The translations under genes and the position numbers were made by a program. The notes under the pieces were generated by a model. That model searched no databases, was not told where the DNA came from, and saw nothing but the letters and a program-made list of their open reading frames with translations. A stretch of DNA of 64,000 nucleotides, from positions 24,341 through 88,340 of the forward strand of contig JBAZIZ010000004.1 in the NCBI GenBank assembly GCA_041651535.1, written 5' to 3'. Position 1 is the first letter of the stretch; each line of letters begins with the position of its first letter. This document shows positions 13,303 to 64,000 of the stretch, one piece after another. The stretch comes from Patescibacteria group bacterium. Lineage in GTDB: Bacteria; Patescibacteriota; Patescibacteriia; Magasanikbacterales; UBA922.

Positions 13303-14794
13303 AAAGGAGGTGATCCATCCACAGCTTCCGCTACGGATGCCTTGTTACGACTTCACCCTGATCACTGACCCTACCTTCGTCCCTCTAATGAGAGCCTTCG
13401 GGTATTGCCAACTTTCGTGGTGTGACGGGCGGTGAGTACAAGACCCGAGAACGTATTCAACGTGCCGTGTCTGATGCACGTTTACTAGCGATTCCAACTT
13501 CATGCAGACAAATTGCAGCCTGCAATCCGAACTGAGATCGGTTTTTTGGGATTAGCTCCACCTCGCGGTTTGGCAACCCTTTGTACCGACCATTGTATCA
13601 TGTGTGTAGCCCAAGACGTAAGAGCCATGCTGATTTGACGTCGTCCTCATCTTCCTCCTCCTTGCGGAGGCAGTCTCTTGTGTACATTTAACACAAGACG
13701 AGGGTTGCGCTCGTTACCCCACTTAAGGGTACACCTCACGGCACGAGCTGACGGCAACCATGCAGCACCTGTGTAGCGCCCTCGAAGGCGGCCCGATTTT
13801 CATCGGGCTTGCAGCTACATGTCAAGCCTTGGTAAGGTTCGCCGCGTATCATCGAATTAAACCACATGATCCACCGCTTGTGCGGGTCCCCGTCTATTCC
13901 TTTGAGTTTTAACCTTGCGGCCGTACTCCCCAGGCGGCGTACTTAACGCGTTAGCTTTTTAAAACGGCACTGGAAGGGTCGATACTTCCAATACCTAGTA
14001 CGCATTGTTTAGGGCGTGGACTACTGGGGTATCTAATCCCATTCGCTACCCACGCTTTGGTCCATGAGTGTCAGAGATGTCCTAGCACACTGCCTTCGCC
14101 TTTGGTGTTCCGGTTGATATCAACGCATTTTACTACTACACCAACCGTTCCGTGTGCCTCTTCCATCCTCTAGTCTAATAGTATCAACAGCAGTTTCCAA
14201 GTTAAGCCTGAAAATTTGACCATTGACTTATTAAACAACCTGCGGACGCTTTACGCCCAATGAATCCGGATAACGTTTGAGGTCTCTGTATTACCGCTGC
14301 TGCTGGCACAGAGTTAGCAACCTCTTATTCCTTAGGTACCGTCACAAATTCTTCCCTAAGAAAAGCAGTTTACGCCCCGAGGGGCTTCTTCCTGCACGCG
14401 GTGTCGCTCCATCACCCTTTCGGGCATTGTGGAATATTCTTGACTGCAGCCTCCCGTAGGAGTCTGGGCCGTATCTCAGTCCCAGTGAGCCGGGTCACGC
14501 TCTCACGCCCGGTACTGATCATTGCCTTGGTAAGCCATTACCTTACCAACTAGCTAATCAGACATAGGCCCCTCTCTAAGCACCGAAGTTTTACATAAGT
14601 AGATTTTCATCCCTTATGACTATCAGGTTTTAATTCATCTTTCGATGAGCTATTCCTGTCTTAGAGGTAGGTTACCAATGTGTTACTCTCCCGTTTGCCG
14701 CTCGTACCCTTTTAGCAAGCTAAAAGTACGTCGCTCGACTTGCATGCCTTAGACACACCGCCAACGTTCATCCTGAGCCAGGATCAAACTCTCA
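13303..14794 (-). rRNA. rrs: 16S ribosomal RNA (about 1.49 kb)
   Basis: The + strand carries the reverse complement of the 16S 3' end (AAAGGAGGTGATCCATCCACAGCTTCCGCTACGGATGCCTTGTTACGACTT, from 13303) and of the 5' end (GGATCAAACTCT at 14781-14792). Internal conserved blocks are also present (GTATTACCGCTGCTGCTGGCAC, GTACAAGACCCGAGAACGTATTCAACG). Confidence 0.95.
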
Positions 14795-15088
14795 ATTAAA
14801 TTGAGATTTTTTCTTGAAATTAATCAAGAATTGATCATCTTATTTCCTAAAGAAATAAGTTAAAAATTTTTGTTATTTAGAATAAACGATTCAATTTGGT
14901 TTTTGTCACATTTATATTGTAAAGTGCCGGTTTTCTTTTTATAAAAAAAGAGAAACCTGTTTCACACTTTAATTCAATGAAAATTAAAAGGTGAATTAGT
15001 TACTCTTTCCTTTTACTTAGTTTCCTTTTTAAAGGACTTTAGAAAAGTTTAAATTGTAATAAATTTATAATACTTTAACGTGAGCTTT

Positions 15089-29891: not shown

Positions 29892-30009
29892 TATTTTTTT
29901 TAAAAGACAAGCTGAATAATTTTTGATTTTAGATTTAGAATTTTTTAAAATTTATTTTTAATTCAAAATTTAGATTCTAAAATCTAAAATTCTAAATCTT
30001 AAATAAAAA

Positions 30010-35690: not shown

Positions 35691-36935
35691 ATGTTTTATT
35701 TTTTAATTTTTCTATTTTTATCATTATTTTTTTATCTAACTTATAAAAATTTTTTTAATGCTTTGTTTTTATTTTTATTTTTGATCCCAGTTTATTTAAT
35801 TAGATTTAAAATTTTAAGTATTCCAACTACATTACTTGAAATGATGCTAATCATAATTTTTATAAATTGGATTTTTAAATATAAAAAAGATTTTTTAACA
35901 AAAACAAAAGAATTTTATAAAAAAAACAAATTATTTTTTTATTCTCTAATCATTTTTTTAATCAGTGCGACTCTAGCAATTGTTGTAAGTTCAAATACCA
36001 AATCAGCTCTCGGTGAATGGAAAGCTTTTTATCTTGAACCAATTCTATTTTTTATAATTTTATTGACTAGTATAAAAACAAAAAAAGAAATCAATAATTT
36101 ATTTTTTGCTCTAGTTTTGTCTGGTACAATTACTTCAATTTTAGCAATTTATCAACATTTTACTGGTTTTTTTGTCCCTTATAGTTTTTGGGAAAATCAA
36201 AATACTTATCGGGTAACTGCTTGGTATGGTTTTCCAAACGCTGTCGGACATTTTTTAGGAGTTATTTTTCCATTAGCTATTTATTTAATTATTTCCAATT
36301 TTAAAGAAAATAATTTAAAAAAAATCATTTCAAGTCTTTTTGTTTTTTTAGCTATTTTAGCAATTTTCTTTGCCAAATCTACTGGTGCTATAATAGGAAT
36401 TTTAGCTAGTATATTTTTACTTTTAATTTACTATAAAAAAACTAGATTAGTTACAATTATTTTTTCTAGCGTCACTTTAATTATTTTTACTTTTATACCG
36501 CTAAATAATCCGATAAAACAAGAATTATTATTTCAAGACAGATCCGGACAGATCAGATTAAACATATGGAATGAAACCTCAGAATTTTTAAAAGTTAATC
36601 CAATTTTTGGAGCAGGGCTAGCAAGTTATAGCCAAAAAATTATTCCTTTTCACAAACAAGTTAATGGCGAAAATATAGAGATTTTTCATCATCCGCATAA
36701 TATATTTTTAACTATGTGGGTAAACTTGGGAATCCTTGGATTGATAAGTTTTGTATTTTTAAATTTATATTGTTTTTATAAATATTTTAAAGAAAAAAAT
36801 ATTTTAAAATTTTTTGCGCTTACTACTCTTAGTTGTTTTCTTGTCATGGGACTAGTTGATAGCCCATATATAAAAAATGATTTATCTTTTATTTATTGGT
36901 TTGTCTTATTTTTATTTTTTGTAAGATATGAATAA
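35691..36935 (+). CDS. O-antigen ligase/polymerase-like (Wzy_C domain) membrane protein
   Basis: 414 aa polytopic membrane protein with an FHHPHNIFL-containing loop, as in the Wzy_C family. Confidence 0.6.
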   Translation: MFYFLIFLFLSLFFYLTYKNFFNALFLFLFLIPVYLIRFKILSIPTTLLEMMLIIIFINWIFKYKKDFLTKTKEFYKKNKLFFYSLIIFLISATLAIVVSSNTKSALGEWKAFYLEPILFFIILLTSIKTKKEINNLFFALVLSGTITSILAIYQHFTGFFVPYSFWENQNTYRVTAWYGFPNAVGHFLGVIFPLAIYLIISNFKENNLKKIISSLFVFLAILAIFFAKSTGAIIGILASIFLLLIYYKKTRLVTIIFSSVTLIIFTFIPLNNPIKQELLFQDRSGQIRLNIWNETSEFLKVNPIFGAGLASYSQKIIPFHKQVNGENIEIFHHPHNIFLTMWVNLGILGLISFVFLNLYCFYKYFKEKNILKFFALTTLSCFLVMGLVDSPYIKNDLSFIYWFVLFLFFVRYE

Positions 36936-37626
36936 AATTATTCAAGAATTAGACAGGCTCAAAAATAAAGAAAAAGCAAAAATTTTACAAAGATTTTTTA
37001 AAACTGCCAAAGGTGAATATGGCGAAGGTGATTTATTTTTAGGAATTACAGTTCCGCAAATTAGACAAATTGCAAAAAATAATTTAAATACATCTTTGGA
37101 GGAACTGCAAAAATTATTAAACAGTAAAATTCATGAGTATCGCCTTGTGGCTTTATTGATTTTAGTAGAAAACTATAAAAAAACTGAGCAAAAAGACAAA
37201 ATATTTAAATTCTATTTAAAAAATTTCAAAAATATAAATAATTGGGATTTGGTAGATTTATCAGCTCCAAAAATTATTGGGGATTATATTTTTCACCATA
37301 AAATTTTAGATAAAAAATTATTAAAATGGGCAAATTCAAAGCATCTTTGGACAAAAAGAATTTCTATTGTCTCTACTTATTTTTTTATCAAAGAAAATAA
37401 TTTTAAACATACTTTAGTAATTTCTAAAATTCTTTTAAACGATAAACATGATTTAATTCATAAAGCTGTCGGCTGGATGCTCCGTGAACTTGGAAAAAAA
37501 GATAAAAAAGTTTTAGAAAATTTTTTAAATGAAAATTTAACTAAAATGCCGAGAAACTCACTGCGTTATGCAATTGAAAAATTTCCCGAAAATCAAAGAA
37601 AAGAATATCTTAAAAAAAGCAAATAA
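36928..37626 (+). CDS. DNA alkylation repair protein (AlkC/AlkD-like HEAT-repeat glycosylase family)
   Basis: 232 aa helical-repeat protein with pattern typical of the DNA_alkylation family. Confidence 0.65.
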   Translation: MNKIIQELDRLKNKEKAKILQRFFKTAKGEYGEGDLFLGITVPQIRQIAKNNLNTSLEELQKLLNSKIHEYRLVALLILVENYKKTEQKDKIFKFYLKNFKNINNWDLVDLSAPKIIGDYIFHHKILDKKLLKWANSKHLWTKRISIVSTYFFIKENNFKHTLVISKILLNDKHDLIHKAVGWMLRELGKKDKKVLENFLNENLTKMPRNSLRYAIEKFPENQRKEYLKKSK

Positions 37627-37737
37627 AATAATTTAGGATTTTAGATTTATAATTTTAGATTTAATTTTTTTAAAAATTTATATTTAATTCAAAAAAACAA
37701 ACTAAAAAAATAAATTTTCTTTAAAACAAATTTCATC

Positions 37738-37903
37738 CACTTTGTCATTCTGAATCCTCCGACGTCATGTCGGAGGTGAAGAGTCCCCCTGCCTACCGGC
37801 AGGCAGGTTAAACTTTTTTAATTTAATAATTGTTGAATTAAAATGGTTGGTGATAATTCACTATTTAAGGGACTCTTCGTCTTCGCCTCAGAGTGACAAA
37901 ATG
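37738..37903. ncRNA. Candidate structured ncRNA: GC-rich nested-hairpin element (closing stem, two GC hairpins, AT-rich apical hairpin)
   Basis: Compensatory pairing read directly: GTCATTCTGA (37744-53) with TCAGAGTGAC (37888-97); GAAGAGTCCC (37779-88) with GGGACTCTTC (37869-78). Local hairpins CCTCCGAC-gtcat-GTCGGAGG and CCTGCC-n8-GGCAGG. It sits in a 375-nt spacer of a compact genome and is a GC island in AT-rich DNA. Confidence 0.45.
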
Positions 37904-38001
37904 TAGATTATTTGTTTTTCTATTTGTTTATTTATTTTTGTATGTTAATCTTACTTAAAAAAAATTATTTTAAAAAATACTAACTACCAACAATATTTTA
38001 T

Positions 38002-38781
38002 ATGAAAATAACATCTTGGAATATCAATGGCATCAGAGCTATAACTAAAAAAGGGTTTTATGATTTTTTAAAAAAAGAAAAAGCTGATATTATCTGTCTT
38101 CAAGAAATTAAAATAGATAATGACAAAAAAATACAAGAAAAATTTGATTTTAAAAATTATAAAGAATTTTGGAATTCGGCTATTCGTCCTGGTTACGCTG
38201 GAACTTTATTCCTTGTAAAAGAAAAATCTGTTATTTATAAACAAATTATAAAACATACAACTGGGATAAATAATGAAATTTTTGATAATGAAGGTCGTGT
38301 CCAAACTTTAGAATTTAAAAATTTCTTTTTAATAAATGCTTATTTCCCAAATTCTCGTGATGATTTATCTAGACTAAAATTCAAACAAGAATTTGATAAA
38401 AAAATATTACTTTATTTAAAAAAACTTTCAAAGAAAAAACCCATAATTTTAGTTGGTGATCTGAATATTGCTCATCAAGAAATAGATCTAGCCCGACCAA
38501 AAGAAAATGAGAAAACTAATGGTTTTACTTACGAAGAACGTCAAGATTTTTCTTTTTTTGTTAAAAATAATTTTATTGATACTTTCCGTCATTTTAATCC
38601 ACAAACCATAAAATATTCTTGGTGGAGTTTCCGTGCTCGTGCTAGAGAACGTAATGTCGGTTGGCGTCTTGATTATGTTTTATGTGATAAAAAATTATTA
38701 AAAAAAATTAAAAAAACTTTTATTCAGAATGAAATTTACGGCTCGGATCATTGTCCAGTCGGAATTGAAATTGATTTATAA
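38002..38781 (+). CDS. xth: Exodeoxyribonuclease III (AP endonuclease)
   Basis: 259 aa, MKITSWNINGIRA N-terminus and SDHCPV C-terminal motif. Confidence 0.9.
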   Translation: MKITSWNINGIRAITKKGFYDFLKKEKADIICLQEIKIDNDKKIQEKFDFKNYKEFWNSAIRPGYAGTLFLVKEKSVIYKQIIKHTTGINNEIFDNEGRVQTLEFKNFFLINAYFPNSRDDLSRLKFKQEFDKKILLYLKKLSKKKPIILVGDLNIAHQEIDLARPKENEKTNGFTYEERQDFSFFVKNNFIDTFRHFNPQTIKYSWWSFRARARERNVGWRLDYVLCDKKLLKKIKKTFIQNEIYGSDHCPVGIEIDL

Positions 38782-57192: not shown

Positions 57193-59619
57193 TTATTTTT
57201 TTCCAAACAAACTTCCAATCAATCCTTTCTTTTCTTTTTTCTCTTCAACTTTTACTACTGGTTTTTCTCCGGTTCTTTTAGAATCTGAATGATTTCTATT
57301 AAAATTATTATTTGGTCTTCCGTTATTTCTATCATTATTTCTATCATTATTTCTATTTCCATGACGATAATCATTTCTTCTATCATTATTTCTAAAATTT
57401 CCATTTCCTCTATTATTTCGATCACTATTTCTTGGACCTCTATCTTCTCTATTATTTTCTGTAAAATTTTCTGGTTTATCTTTCAAAATTTTCATGCTTA
57501 AATTTACTCTGCCCATGTTGTCTATTTCTTTGACTTTTACTTTTACAACATCACCTAATTTTAAAACATCACTAGGTTTATTTGTTCTTTCCCAAGAAAT
57601 TTCACTCACATGTACTAAACCGTCTTTTCCAGGAAGCAATTCTACAAAAGCACCAAAATCTTCCAATCTAACAACTTTTCCATCATAAATTTCACCAGCT
57701 TCAATTTCTTTTGTTAAATCAGTAACCATTTTTATAGCTTTTTTCATTCCTTCACCATCTGAAGAAGTGATAAGAACACGGCCGTCTTGTTCAATATCAA
57801 TTTGAACACCAGTTTCAGCAATAATTTTATTAATTACTTTTCCACCAGGACCGATTACATCTTTTATTTTTTCTGGATTAATTTGAATAGTTTCAATTCT
57901 TGGAGCATATTTTGATAGTTCTGCTCGAGGAGAAACAATCGCACTATTCATAACTCCTAAAACTTGTAATCTGGCTTCACGAGCTTGTTTAATTGTTTGT
58001 TTTACTAAATCCCAATTTAAACCATTTGTTTTTGTATCCATTTGGATAGCAGTAATTCCATCAGCAGTACCAGCAATTTTAAAATCCATGCCACCTTTTC
58101 CATCTTCTACATCTTGGAGGTCAGTCAAAACTTTCCAATTACCATTTTCATCAGAAGCAAGTCCCATTGCTATACCAGCAACAGCTTTTTTTATTGGTAC
58201 ACCTGCAGCCATAAGTGACAAACTTGAACCACAAGTTGATGCCATTGAACTAGAACCATTTGAACCCATAACTTCAGAAACTACACGGATAGCATAAGGA
58301 AATTCTTCTTCGCTTGGCAAAACTGCGAGTAAAGCTTTTTCTGCAAGTGCTCCATGTCCAACGGCTCGACGTGAAGGTCCGCGCATTGGAGCTGCTTCTC
58401 CATAAGCAAAAGGAGAATCATTATAATGATGCATATATCTTTTTGTGCCATCTTCTTCCATTGAATCTAAAGTCTGCACGTCACCAGGAGCGCCCAAAGT
58501 TACGATAGAGACAACTTGTGTGTCACCACGCATAAACATTGCACTACCATGAACACGAGGTAATAGATCTATTTCAGAATATAATTCACGTATATCAGTT
58601 AATTTTCTACCATCTAATCTTTGATCTTTTTCTAAAATTCTTTTACTAATTTCACTGCAAATATATTCTTTAATATTTTTTAAAGAATTTTCAATTAAAT
58701 TTTCTCCGATAACTATTGCACCATCTTTATCAGTTTTAATTTCTTTTCCTGTTAAAAATTCTTTTAAATCATGTTTTAATTCATCAATCATTTTGTTTCT
58801 TTCATCTTTAGAAACTTTTGGAGAATTAAAAATTTTGCTATCAGTTTGGGCAGCGATAAAATCTTTTGTCATTTGATTGACGATTTCTTTTGGATCTTGT
58901 AAATCAGTTACAGTTTTTTCTTCTTTAACTACACCGAGTTCTTCTTGAATTTTTTTAATTAAATCCACAACTGCTTTCATTTGTTCACAGCCCCATTTCA
59001 TAGCTGAAAACATTTGTTCTTCTGGAATTTCACTAGCTCGAGCTTCTACCATAACTAATTTTTCTGGAGTACCTGCAACTAATAAATCTAATTTGTTATT
59101 TATTTCTAATTCTTGGTCTGTAATATTTAAAACAAATTCATCATTTGCATTTAAACCAATTCTAGCTCCAGCAATAGGACCATGCCAATTTATTTTTGAA
59201 ATTGACAAAACAACACTAGCTGCAAGCAATCCAACAAAAGAAGCATCATTTTCATTATCAACAGACAAGGCTGTCAAAACAACTTGTACATCATTTCTAA
59301 TACTTTCATCAAACAAAGGACGGATAGCTCTATCAATCATCCGAGCTGATAAAATTGCTTCATCACTTGGACGTCCTTCTCTTTTTATAAAACGAGAACC
59401 TTTTATTTTTCCAGCTGCATATAATCTTTCTTCAAACTCAGTCATGAGTGGAAAAAAATCTATATCACGGACATTTTTGCTCTTAACTACAGTAGCCAAA
59501 ATGGTAGTTTCACCATATTGTACTAGACAAGAGGCATCGGCTTGAAAAGCCATTTTATTTATTTCGATTGAAAGTTTTCTTCCACCCCAATCGATAGACC
59601 AACTTTTTGGTTTTAACAT
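57193..59619 (-). CDS. pnp: Polyribonucleotide nucleotidyltransferase (PNPase) with ~100-aa Arg/Asn/Asp-rich C-terminal tail
   Basis: Two RNase PH domains, KH and S1 domains, then NREDRGPRNSDRNNRGNGNFRNNDRRNDYRHGNRNNDRNNDRNNGRPNNNF... encoded by a 12-nt tandem repeat (ATCATTATTTCT) around 57300-57440. Confidence 0.95.
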   Translation of the reverse strand: MLKPKSWSIDWGGRKLSIEINKMAFQADASCLVQYGETTILATVVKSKNVRDIDFFPLMTEFEERLYAAGKIKGSRFIKREGRPSDEAILSARMIDRAIRPLFDESIRNDVQVVLTALSVDNENDASFVGLLAASVVLSISKINWHGPIAGARIGLNANDEFVLNITDQELEINNKLDLLVAGTPEKLVMVEARASEIPEEQMFSAMKWGCEQMKAVVDLIKKIQEELGVVKEEKTVTDLQDPKEIVNQMTKDFIAAQTDSKIFNSPKVSKDERNKMIDELKHDLKEFLTGKEIKTDKDGAIVIGENLIENSLKNIKEYICSEISKRILEKDQRLDGRKLTDIRELYSEIDLLPRVHGSAMFMRGDTQVVSIVTLGAPGDVQTLDSMEEDGTKRYMHHYNDSPFAYGEAAPMRGPSRRAVGHGALAEKALLAVLPSEEEFPYAIRVVSEVMGSNGSSSMASTCGSSLSLMAAGVPIKKAVAGIAMGLASDENGNWKVLTDLQDVEDGKGGMDFKIAGTADGITAIQMDTKTNGLNWDLVKQTIKQAREARLQVLGVMNSAIVSPRAELSKYAPRIETIQINPEKIKDVIGPGGKVINKIIAETGVQIDIEQDGRVLITSSDGEGMKKAIKMVTDLTKEIEAGEIYDGKVVRLEDFGAFVELLPGKDGLVHVSEISWERTNKPSDVLKLGDVVKVKVKEIDNMGRVNLSMKILKDKPENFTENNREDRGPRNSDRNNRGNGNFRNNDRRNDYRHGNRNNDRNNDRNNGRPNNNFNRNHSDSKRTGEKPVVKVEEKKEKKGLIGSLFGKK

Positions 59620-63804: not shown

Positions 63805-64000
63805 TTATAGCAGTGGTTTCCCTGTCATTTCATTTGGAATCTCTAAACCAGCGTGTTTCAAAATCGTTGGTGCAATATCAGCTAAAATTCCTACAGGAGT
63901 CAAAAGAGAAATATCTATTTTTTTTATATCCAAAATATTTTGTCCAACAAAACGATTACCAATAACTAAAAATGGTACTGGATGATTATTATGTTCTTTA
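63805..64000 (-). CDS. gpmI: 2,3-bisphosphoglycerate-independent phosphoglycerate mutase (partial, C-terminal end only)
   Basis: Minus-strand translation ...HNNHPVPFLVIGNRFVGQNILDIKKIDISLLTPVGILADIAPTILKHAGLEIPNEMTGKPLL* matches the conserved iPGM C-terminus; runs off the window edge. Confidence 0.7.
   Translation of the reverse strand, partial: KEHNNHPVPFLVIGNRFVGQNILDIKKIDISLLTPVGILADIAPTILKHAGLEIPNEMTGKPLL

Follow-up and report, generated by a model that had tools for sequence, protein, structure and literature searches.

What is the GC-rich, hairpin-forming element that separates alkD from xth in a patescibacterial genome: the gene of a structured RNA, or a repeat that works as DNA? The element lies at positions 37738-37903 of a stretch of 64,000 nucleotides (nt) of contig JBAZIZ010000004.1, called the window from here on, which has 29% GC and whose proteins place the host among the Patescibacteria, or Candidate Phyla Radiation (CPR), near Magasanikbacteria. 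An initial annotation had read it as a structured non-coding RNA (ncRNA) with an architecture resembling that of 6S RNA, and had offered as an alternative a mobile hairpin similar to a miniature inverted-repeat transposable element (MITE). We consider it likely that the element is a DNA-level repeat and not an RNA gene, namely a convergent pair of hairpin modules of the Ssn-related motif (SRM) class, which includes the Neisseria Transformation Sequence (NTS) and the dRS3-type repeats of Neisseria.

Two inverted modules in the alkD-xth spacer

The DNA-alkylation-repair gene alkD (36928-37626) has its stop at 37626 and the exodeoxyribonuclease III gene xth (38002-38781) its start at 38002, which bears out the gap of 375 nt given in the initial annotation, and every helix listed there was found in its place. 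GTCATTCTGA (37744-37753) pairs with TCAGAGTGAC (37888-37897) through nine Watson-Crick pairs and one G-U (or G-T) pair to form helix P1, and GAAGAGTCCC (37778-37787) pairs perfectly with GGGACTCTTC (37869-37878) to form helix P3. Further inside are the hairpin CCTGCCT-ACCGGC-AGGCAGG (37788-37807), an AT-rich hairpin (37811-37848) and the small hairpin GTGA-TAAT-TCAC (37850-37861). The outer arms, which read CACTTTGTCATTCTGA and, as the reverse complement, CATTTTGTCACTCTGA, form imperfect terminal inverted repeats of 16 nt, as had been described. The minimum free energy (MFE) structure of the element is a multibranch fold; on the + strand it reaches -76.5 kcal/mol, against -37.95 +/- 4.18 kcal/mol for shuffled sequences (z = -9.22; none of 200 shuffles as good), and the - strand is nearly equal (-68.1 kcal/mol, z = -8.55). 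The local GC island noticed earlier is real as well, with up to 62% GC in 60-nt windows, and within the window it is second only to the 16S gene.

The element contains two copies, facing each other, of a short module which, read 5' to 3' on its own strand, follows the plan GTC-AYYCT-GA-(variable mini-stem/loop)-GA-AGRRT-C. This layout consists of a conserved GTC, a 5-bp stem (AYYCT/AGRRT), a tandem GA/GA step, a variable apical stem-loop and a conserved C. Module 1 (37744-37785, + strand) reads GTC-ATTCT-GA-[24-nt insert]-GA-AGAGT-C, with GTC on the 5' side of the palindrome and C on its 3' side, and fits the relaxed family pattern GTCAYYCTGA-N(3-50)-GAAGRRT, its two variable pairs being one G-T and one Watson-Crick pair. 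The loop position of this module is occupied by an extended apical hairpin, CCTCCGAC-GTCAT-GTCGGAGG (37756-37776, + strand), which as DNA folds alone (-9.5 kcal/mol, z -3.2). Module 2 (37871-37897, - strand) reads GTC-ACTCT-GA-GGCGAAGAC-GA-AGAGT-C, and its membership of the family is established: it is the top match of the whole window (28.7 bits, E 4e-5) to R1, a covariance model made from 128 distinct metagenomic modules. The stem of module 2 (ACTCT/AGAGT) is perfect and that of module 1 (ATTCT/AGAGT) has the one G-T pair; with nearest-neighbour DNA energies, the short stem of module 2 alone is not more stable than shuffled sequences.

The region between the modules (37786-37870, assigned to neither strand) holds the three inner hairpins listed above, and as DNA its positions 37786-37868 fold with -14.3 kcal/mol (z -4.0). 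Outwards, the left arm of the inverted repeat is extended by CACTTT (37738-37743, + strand) and the right arm by AAAATG (37898-37903, + strand), which pair with each other with one C-A mismatch; across the repeat family the positions equivalent to 37738-37743 are unconserved, except that a T is preferred before GTCA. The pattern matches the window only at these two convergent modules (37744-37784 on the + strand and 37872-37897 on the - strand). Helices P1 and P3 arise because the outer halves (GTCAYTCTGA) and the inner halves (GAAGAGTCCC) of two inverted modules pair together.

A covarying module family and its GIY-YIG gene

The stringent pattern GTCAYYCTGAG-N6-CGAAGRRTC was found in metagenomes at 120 loci at least, on contigs of 33-68% GC, where a rough estimate of the chance expectation is about 15 (loci and contigs other than the window are given by L numbers). 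With the relaxed pattern we collected 230 of these modules, which we call CTGAG-type, in 651 kb, and both variable stem pairs were Watson-Crick in 222 of them, a pairing that the pattern does not impose. Covariation of the stem is established by the 128 modules of R1: pair 7-26 is UA in 109 and CG in 19, and pair 8-25 is CG in 85, UA in 41 and UG in 2, neither of them being unpaired in any module, while the apical pair 14-19 is CG in 87, GC in 11, UA in 4, UG in 3 and unpaired in 23. None of 500 shuffles reached the observed covariation score, and slid controls collapsed. The inner part of the module, between the two GA steps, is usually a G-C and a C-G pair closing a GNNA loop, or alternatively a stretch of 3-50 nt; such long loop inserts, like that of module 1, occur in about a quarter of the family (for example in L068 and L070). 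Among some 90 further family copies found nearby, in which the search pattern forced neither GTC nor the trailing C, GTC is kept in about 81 (~90%) and the C in about 84 (~93%). Rfam models covered none of the modules in 15 family loci, and a literature search for the motif as a text string returned unrelated primers only.

Neighbouring modules are mostly convergent (+ then -), as seen in 43 of 69 such pairs. The compact convergent pairs, 42 with that of the window, have spacers of 5-87 nt; the 41 others span 54-128 nt overall with spacers of 5-71 nt, so the window's element is the longest of all (154 nt) and has the longest spacer too (87 nt between the pattern matches, from 37784 to 37872). 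The two partners of a pair differ in stem type in 24 of the 42 pairs and in their inner parts in 41, and therefore selection keeps each local hairpin and not the long-range pairing that dominates the MFE fold of the window's element. Indeed, what covaries across the family are the local module hairpins, not the long-range pairs. Pairs with short spacers and without an open reading frame (ORF) are the majority form.

In four loci ascertained by the pattern, an ORF of about 94 aa encoding a GIY-YIG domain (PF01541, E 2e-16) stands between a + module, located some 20-45 nt before the start codon, and an inverted module just past the stop, the latter being degenerate in L009 and L112. No other protein family recurs beside modules in four independent loci, if one sets aside housekeeping families (ABC transporters, for instance) and a larger cluster restricted to four gut-metagenome contigs that are close relatives of each other. 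With the product of Neisseria gonorrhoeae ssnA the metagenomic protein shares 53% identity (E 5e-29), and it also matches the UPF0213 structural-genomics entries 1ZG2 and 1YWL. Homologs of this ssn gene picked by protein alone, from Candidatus Aquicultor, Burkholderiales, Chloroflexota and Nitrospirae, all carry CTGAG-type modules on both sides of the gene, and a homolog from Planktothrix (plasmid or chromid records) has the same modules in arrays. The association of modules and ssn is thus established, modules of this type being found on both sides of the gene in L009, L082, L112, L115 and L129-L144. In Rhizobium, Azospirillum and Spirosoma, covered through records of the same kind, the flanks of the homologs are sequence variants of the plan GTCA-hairpin-TC, for example GTCATCCCCGCGAAGGCGGGGATCC, and the N. 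gonorrhoeae homolog is flanked by GTCATTCCCGCGcagGCGGGAATC, another variant of the same plan. Keyword searches of the literature combining GIY-YIG with COG2827, MITE or UPF0213 gave nothing relevant.

Half-modules (GTCAYYCTGAG or TCAGRRTGAC, each with a further 11-15 nt) are repeated in tandem, with a period of 21-32 nt, beside full modules in L129 (~1370-1450), L131 (~1370-1430), L115 (836-1052), L126 (796-1080) and L144 (1181-1500 and 1830-2090). Their copy number varies between near-identical strains, with four half-modules in L129 and three in L131. In L126 at least seven modules follow one another head to tail with a 32-nt period, comprising six exact pattern matches and eight GTCAYYCTGA half-sites. 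In L144 (Planktothrix agardhii plasmid NZ_LR882964.1, 17347-20616) the ssn-like gene and its module arrays have a type IIL MmeI restriction-modification gene on one side and drmA, the helicase gene of DISARM, on the other, the context being that of a defence island.

Comparison with Ssn-related motifs and other repeats

The system to which these modules can be compared has been described in Neisseria by Chenal et al. (Nat Commun 2025, PMC11893778), who define the NTS as CGTCATTCCCGCGMAVGCGGGAATCYRG, with dRS3 (ATTCCC-N8-GGGAAT) as its core, and the SRM as the broader class around it. SRM are found near 71% of SsnA homologs, and on both sides in 42%; SsnA itself has 94 aa and belongs to cd10448 (PMC11893778). 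The hairpin is bound by SsnA and three homologs only when it is single-stranded DNA (ssDNA), and then on one strand only; these proteins cut a few nt upstream of it and are inactive on double-stranded DNA and on RNA (PMC11893778). Binding depends above all on the C that follows the palindrome, and cleavage on the three nt that precede the palindrome, while the identity of the loop is dispensable and extensions at its position are tolerated (PMC11893778). In Neisseria the system modulates natural transformation, and the authors likened the layout NTS-ssnA-NTS to an insertion sequence (IS) and compared it with repetitive extragenic palindromes (REP) and their REP-associated tyrosine transposases (RAYT) (PMC11893778). 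The copy number of SRM varies widely between species, and the degenerate string used to search for them was derived by hand from 29 genomes; neither 'Patescibacteria' nor 'Candidate Phyla' occurs in the main text (PMC11893778).

The two modules of the window share the oriented plan of this class, GTC followed by a palindrome that starts with A and ends with T and then by C: both start with GTC directly before the A of the stem, and both end in AGAGT-C. The palindrome is a hairpin of 20-50 nt with a maintained stem, as the covariation in the family shows, and the length of the loop is variable, as seen in module 1. CTGAG-type modules also occur in the arrangement module-ssn-module, with convergent copies around a single-domain GIY-YIG gene of about 94 aa and many copies without an ORF. 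The motifs differ in that the CTGAG-type has the stem AYYCT, the GA/GA step and a mini-stem where the NTS has the continuous stem ATTCCCGCG, and in that the window's host is a CPR bacterium.

Other families of short repeats resemble the element in part. Like the dRS3 repeats and the Neisseria intergenic mosaic elements (NIMEs), it is made of short palindromic repeats clustered in intergenic DNA, but dRS3 is a symmetric 20-bp palindrome with hundreds of copies, whereas the window's motif is oriented, has another sequence and is single-copy. With REP and their REPIN doublets served by RAYT, and with bacterial interspersed mosaic elements (BIMEs), the modules have in common a hairpin after a conserved short 5' tag, inverted doublets that fold into one larger hairpin, a small nuclease gene that has its own repeats on either side and a recognition presumed to take place on ssDNA. 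The enzyme associated with the modules, however, is a GIY-YIG nuclease and not an HUH tyrosine transposase, and the tag is GTC rather than GTAG. REPs are typically species-specific, whereas modules of essentially one sequence turn up in contigs of 33-68% GC and in named organisms from several phyla.

Among species representatives of GTDB, a 21-mer of the 3' arm had one exact match, in a Candidatus Daviesbacteria contig (L008, MFCV01000027.1). The element found there is 81 nt long, has the same ends and shares with module 2 of the window 28 identical nt, GACTCTTCGTCTTCGCCTCAGAGTGACA; comparing it with the window reveals that each arm of the window's element is a copy of one module. No match was obtained in viral scans with the window's own exact words, in an exact-word scan of metagenomes with the window sequence, or in a blastn search of plasmids with a canonical module pair. 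The 81-nt pair of L008 (543-623) lies in frame within an ORF of 447 aa (57-1400), which reads ...DPSVILKAEGAASSASEGYNLDSSSSPQSDT..., has plausible protein sequence on both sides of the pair, and matches nothing in Pfam or NCBIfam. This pair may be an in-frame insertion like the palindromic elements of Rickettsia, or the ORF may be miscalled.

Several observations weigh against assigning the element to the SRM class. The published string HGTCWYN(0-2)YYVSBRHN(0-5)WNVSBRGN(0-2)RNCYNB has no match in the window and does not match the CTGAG-type consensus. Module 1 aligns to R1 only locally (13.9 bits, E 0.22) because of its 24-nt loop insertion, and 16 positions of the 137 ascertained modules were fixed by the search pattern, so conservation at these positions is partly by construction. 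By tblastn there is no ssn homolog in the 64-kb window, and the module model finds no further module there or in an additional ~10.6 kb of the same genome, which was screened with this model alone. For the organism of the window a cognate nuclease and multicopy status are thus at most putative. The many copies per genome that are characteristic of the class are not seen here, with one composite in ~75 kb; this does not exclude membership, given the published range of copy numbers between species. In the same-species comparison presented below the spacer is replaced, and there is no clean insertion whose empty site could be recognised. Lastly, a side effect at the RNA level, on the alkD-xth mRNA, is still conceivable.

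Regarding the published string, it has only four matches in the 120 loci L009-L128, though these contain the 230 CTGAG-type modules. It matches the NTS and the flanks of the Rhizobium and Azospirillum genes and misses the Spirosoma variant GTCATCCCGAGGAACGAGGGATC. Surveys that use this string probably undercount the class. We accordingly describe the window's element as an orphan pair without an ORF, whose SRM sequence type falls outside the published string, with a putative function in its host.

Strain-level variation, alternatives and implications

The element is variable at strain level. L006 belongs to the same species as the window, with 98.0-98.6% nucleotide identity in both flanks and an identical xth protein, but has an unrelated stretch of 95 nt (L006 865-959) in place of window positions 37631-37957, the 327 nt of the alkD-xth spacer, on neither strand in particular, that hold the element. 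In the nearest other species (L001, xth 79% identical) alkD and xth overlap by 4 nt, and in the more distant relatives L003 and L004 they are 16 nt apart; the element was not found at alkD-xth in any of these four. A housekeeping RNA, 6S for example, would not vary in this way between strains. The assembly of L007, which matches the window at 100% identity, breaks off within the element, L007 position 1 being window position 37793. The spacer of L006 has an imperfect inverted repeat of its own (AGTAAGCTAGTAG ... CTTACCTGCTTAC) and no module. Two Logan assemblies of this or related strains stop here, L007 inside the element and L002 some 98 nt before xth, and it seems that de Bruijn-graph assembly is interrupted by the palindromic hairpins or else by variation at the site.

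With these data the other explanations can be weighed. A structured ncRNA gene on the + strand, with a nested four-helix fold either similar to 6S or of a new class, would account for the very stable predicted fold (z -9.2) and for a GC island in an AT-rich genome, and the G-U pair in P1 together with the slightly better energy of the + strand would fit an RNA made from the strand of the flanking genes. Rfam gave no credible match over the element, 6S included, at gathering thresholds on the window or at E <= 10 on the spacer. The 6S-like reading of the initial annotation does not hold up against the absence of the element from the same-species strain and from relatives in which the genes overlap or lie 16 nt apart. 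The fold shares with 6S RNA a long closing helix and internal loops, yet it is branched, and not a rod with a central bubble, it has no match to RF00013, and it is not conserved in L006, L001, L003 or L004. Moreover, we found no promoter-like or terminator-like site around the element (no consensus sites of a sigma-70-like promoter or an intrinsic terminator are predicted in 37500-38100), the long-range helices are accounted for by the two inverted modules, the long-range pairing is unconserved among pairs whose partners usually differ, and the proteins associated with such motifs bind no RNA (PMC11893778). Taken together, this makes an RNA gene the least probable of the explanations, and a highly improbable one. 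A hammerhead reading of CUGA...GAA...GUC was also rejected: the CUGAUGA core is lacking, stem I would have no space, and Rfam gave no match.

The mobile-hairpin alternative of the initial annotation came nearer to the truth than its ncRNA reading: the element does belong to a family of dispersed repeats, whose repeat-gene-repeat parents are IS-like, and does have terminal inverted repeats, but the multiple near-identical copies of a MITE are missing from the ~75 kb of this genome that were covered. Second copies in the window were detected neither with mismatch-tolerant probes, nor with blastn at word size 7, nor with the covariance model, whose next-best match (63822-63844) falls in coding sequence and is due to chance. 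A MITE in the classical sense, derived by deletion from an IS with a DDE transposase and moved via its terminal inverted repeats, would be short, ORF-less and strain-variable, as the element is, and two related-strain assemblies that break just upstream of xth or inside the element agree with it too. It would not explain why no direct repeat, and so no target-site duplication, is visible beside 37738/37903 or 37744/37897, nor why the sole gene that recurs between such ends encodes a 94-aa GIY-YIG nuclease and not a transposase. The ends, besides, are self-folding hairpins with covariation, which the terminal inverted repeats of DDE elements do not need, and only a single copy was found in ~75 kb; we regard a MITE in this strict sense as very unlikely. 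It is also very unlikely that the element is an inert remnant, left when a complete module-ssn-module cassette lost its GIY-YIG ORF by deletion in place. Full cassettes have the same convergent layout and the inter-module spacer is the longest among compact pairs, but by tblastn this spacer has no similarity to ssn genes, it has significant hairpins of its own, and, with ORF-less short-spacer pairs being the majority everywhere, a local deletion need not be assumed.

We therefore return to the convergent pair of SRM-class modules as the explanation we favour. On the top strand it would be module 1 that has the readable orientation, on the bottom strand module 2, so that either strand, when single, would display one recognisable module. 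Whenever the DNA becomes single-stranded, during uptake, replication or conjugation, a module would be presented to an Ssn-type nuclease, and a cognate Ssn, if present in the cell or else in a donor or recipient, would cut the copy of the window. The pair may have arrived by recombination or horizontal transfer within the replaced spacer, as one of the ORF-less pairs that are the common derivative form of the module-ssn-module arrangement; the additional hairpins, those of the inter-module spacer and that in the loop of module 1, could be passengers. Because it lies between two co-oriented genes the element is probably transcribed, being read through from alkD into xth, and it would have no function as a discrete RNA.

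Some further features of the window were noted. A stretch of about 50 nt rich in AT, ATTT..GATTTTAGATTTA..TTTTTAAAATTTAT.TTTAATTCAAAA, occurs at 37645-37694, inside the strain-variable spacer and to the left of the element, and again at 29919-29968, with 86% identity and in direct orientation, the two intergenic regions being unrelated; this may represent another small repeat of intergenic DNA, or else regulatory sequence common to both regions. The 16S rRNA gene (13303-14799, - strand) is the sole Rfam match of the whole window at gathering thresholds, no 23S or 5S gene being detected by Rfam anywhere in the 64 kb and no tRNA gene by ARAGORN. Another GC island (58308-58539) proved to be ordinary coding sequence, part of an ORF of 808 aa (PNPase domains in L150).

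A bolder proposal, which we consider rather unlikely, is that the CTGAG/CGAAG module, with its tandem G-A step and mostly a GNNA mini-hairpin, forms a major SRM subfamily missed by the published string, whose ORF-less pairs move horizontally between distant CPR lineages and act without a resident ssn gene. The transfer between CPR lineages would rest on the 28 identical nt common to the window organism and the Daviesbacteria genome. If it were true, CTGAG-type pairs without a resident ssn might mark DNA for the nuclease of a donor or a neighbour during uptake, or might be recombination breakpoints at which whole intergenic spacers are swapped.

Rejecting the candidate ncRNA removes a false lead, and the SRM assignment, if correct, extends the Ssn/NTS class of hairpins targeted by an ssDNA nuclease to a CPR genome. 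It also draws attention to a very abundant sequence type of the motif that escapes the published search string. The window and L006 provide a clean contrast within one species, in which a whole intergenic spacer carrying the pair has been exchanged. CPR bacteria are generally assumed to rely on the uptake of DNA, and the finding would be relevant to them if Ssn-type motifs influence DNA uptake or recombination there as they do in Neisseria.

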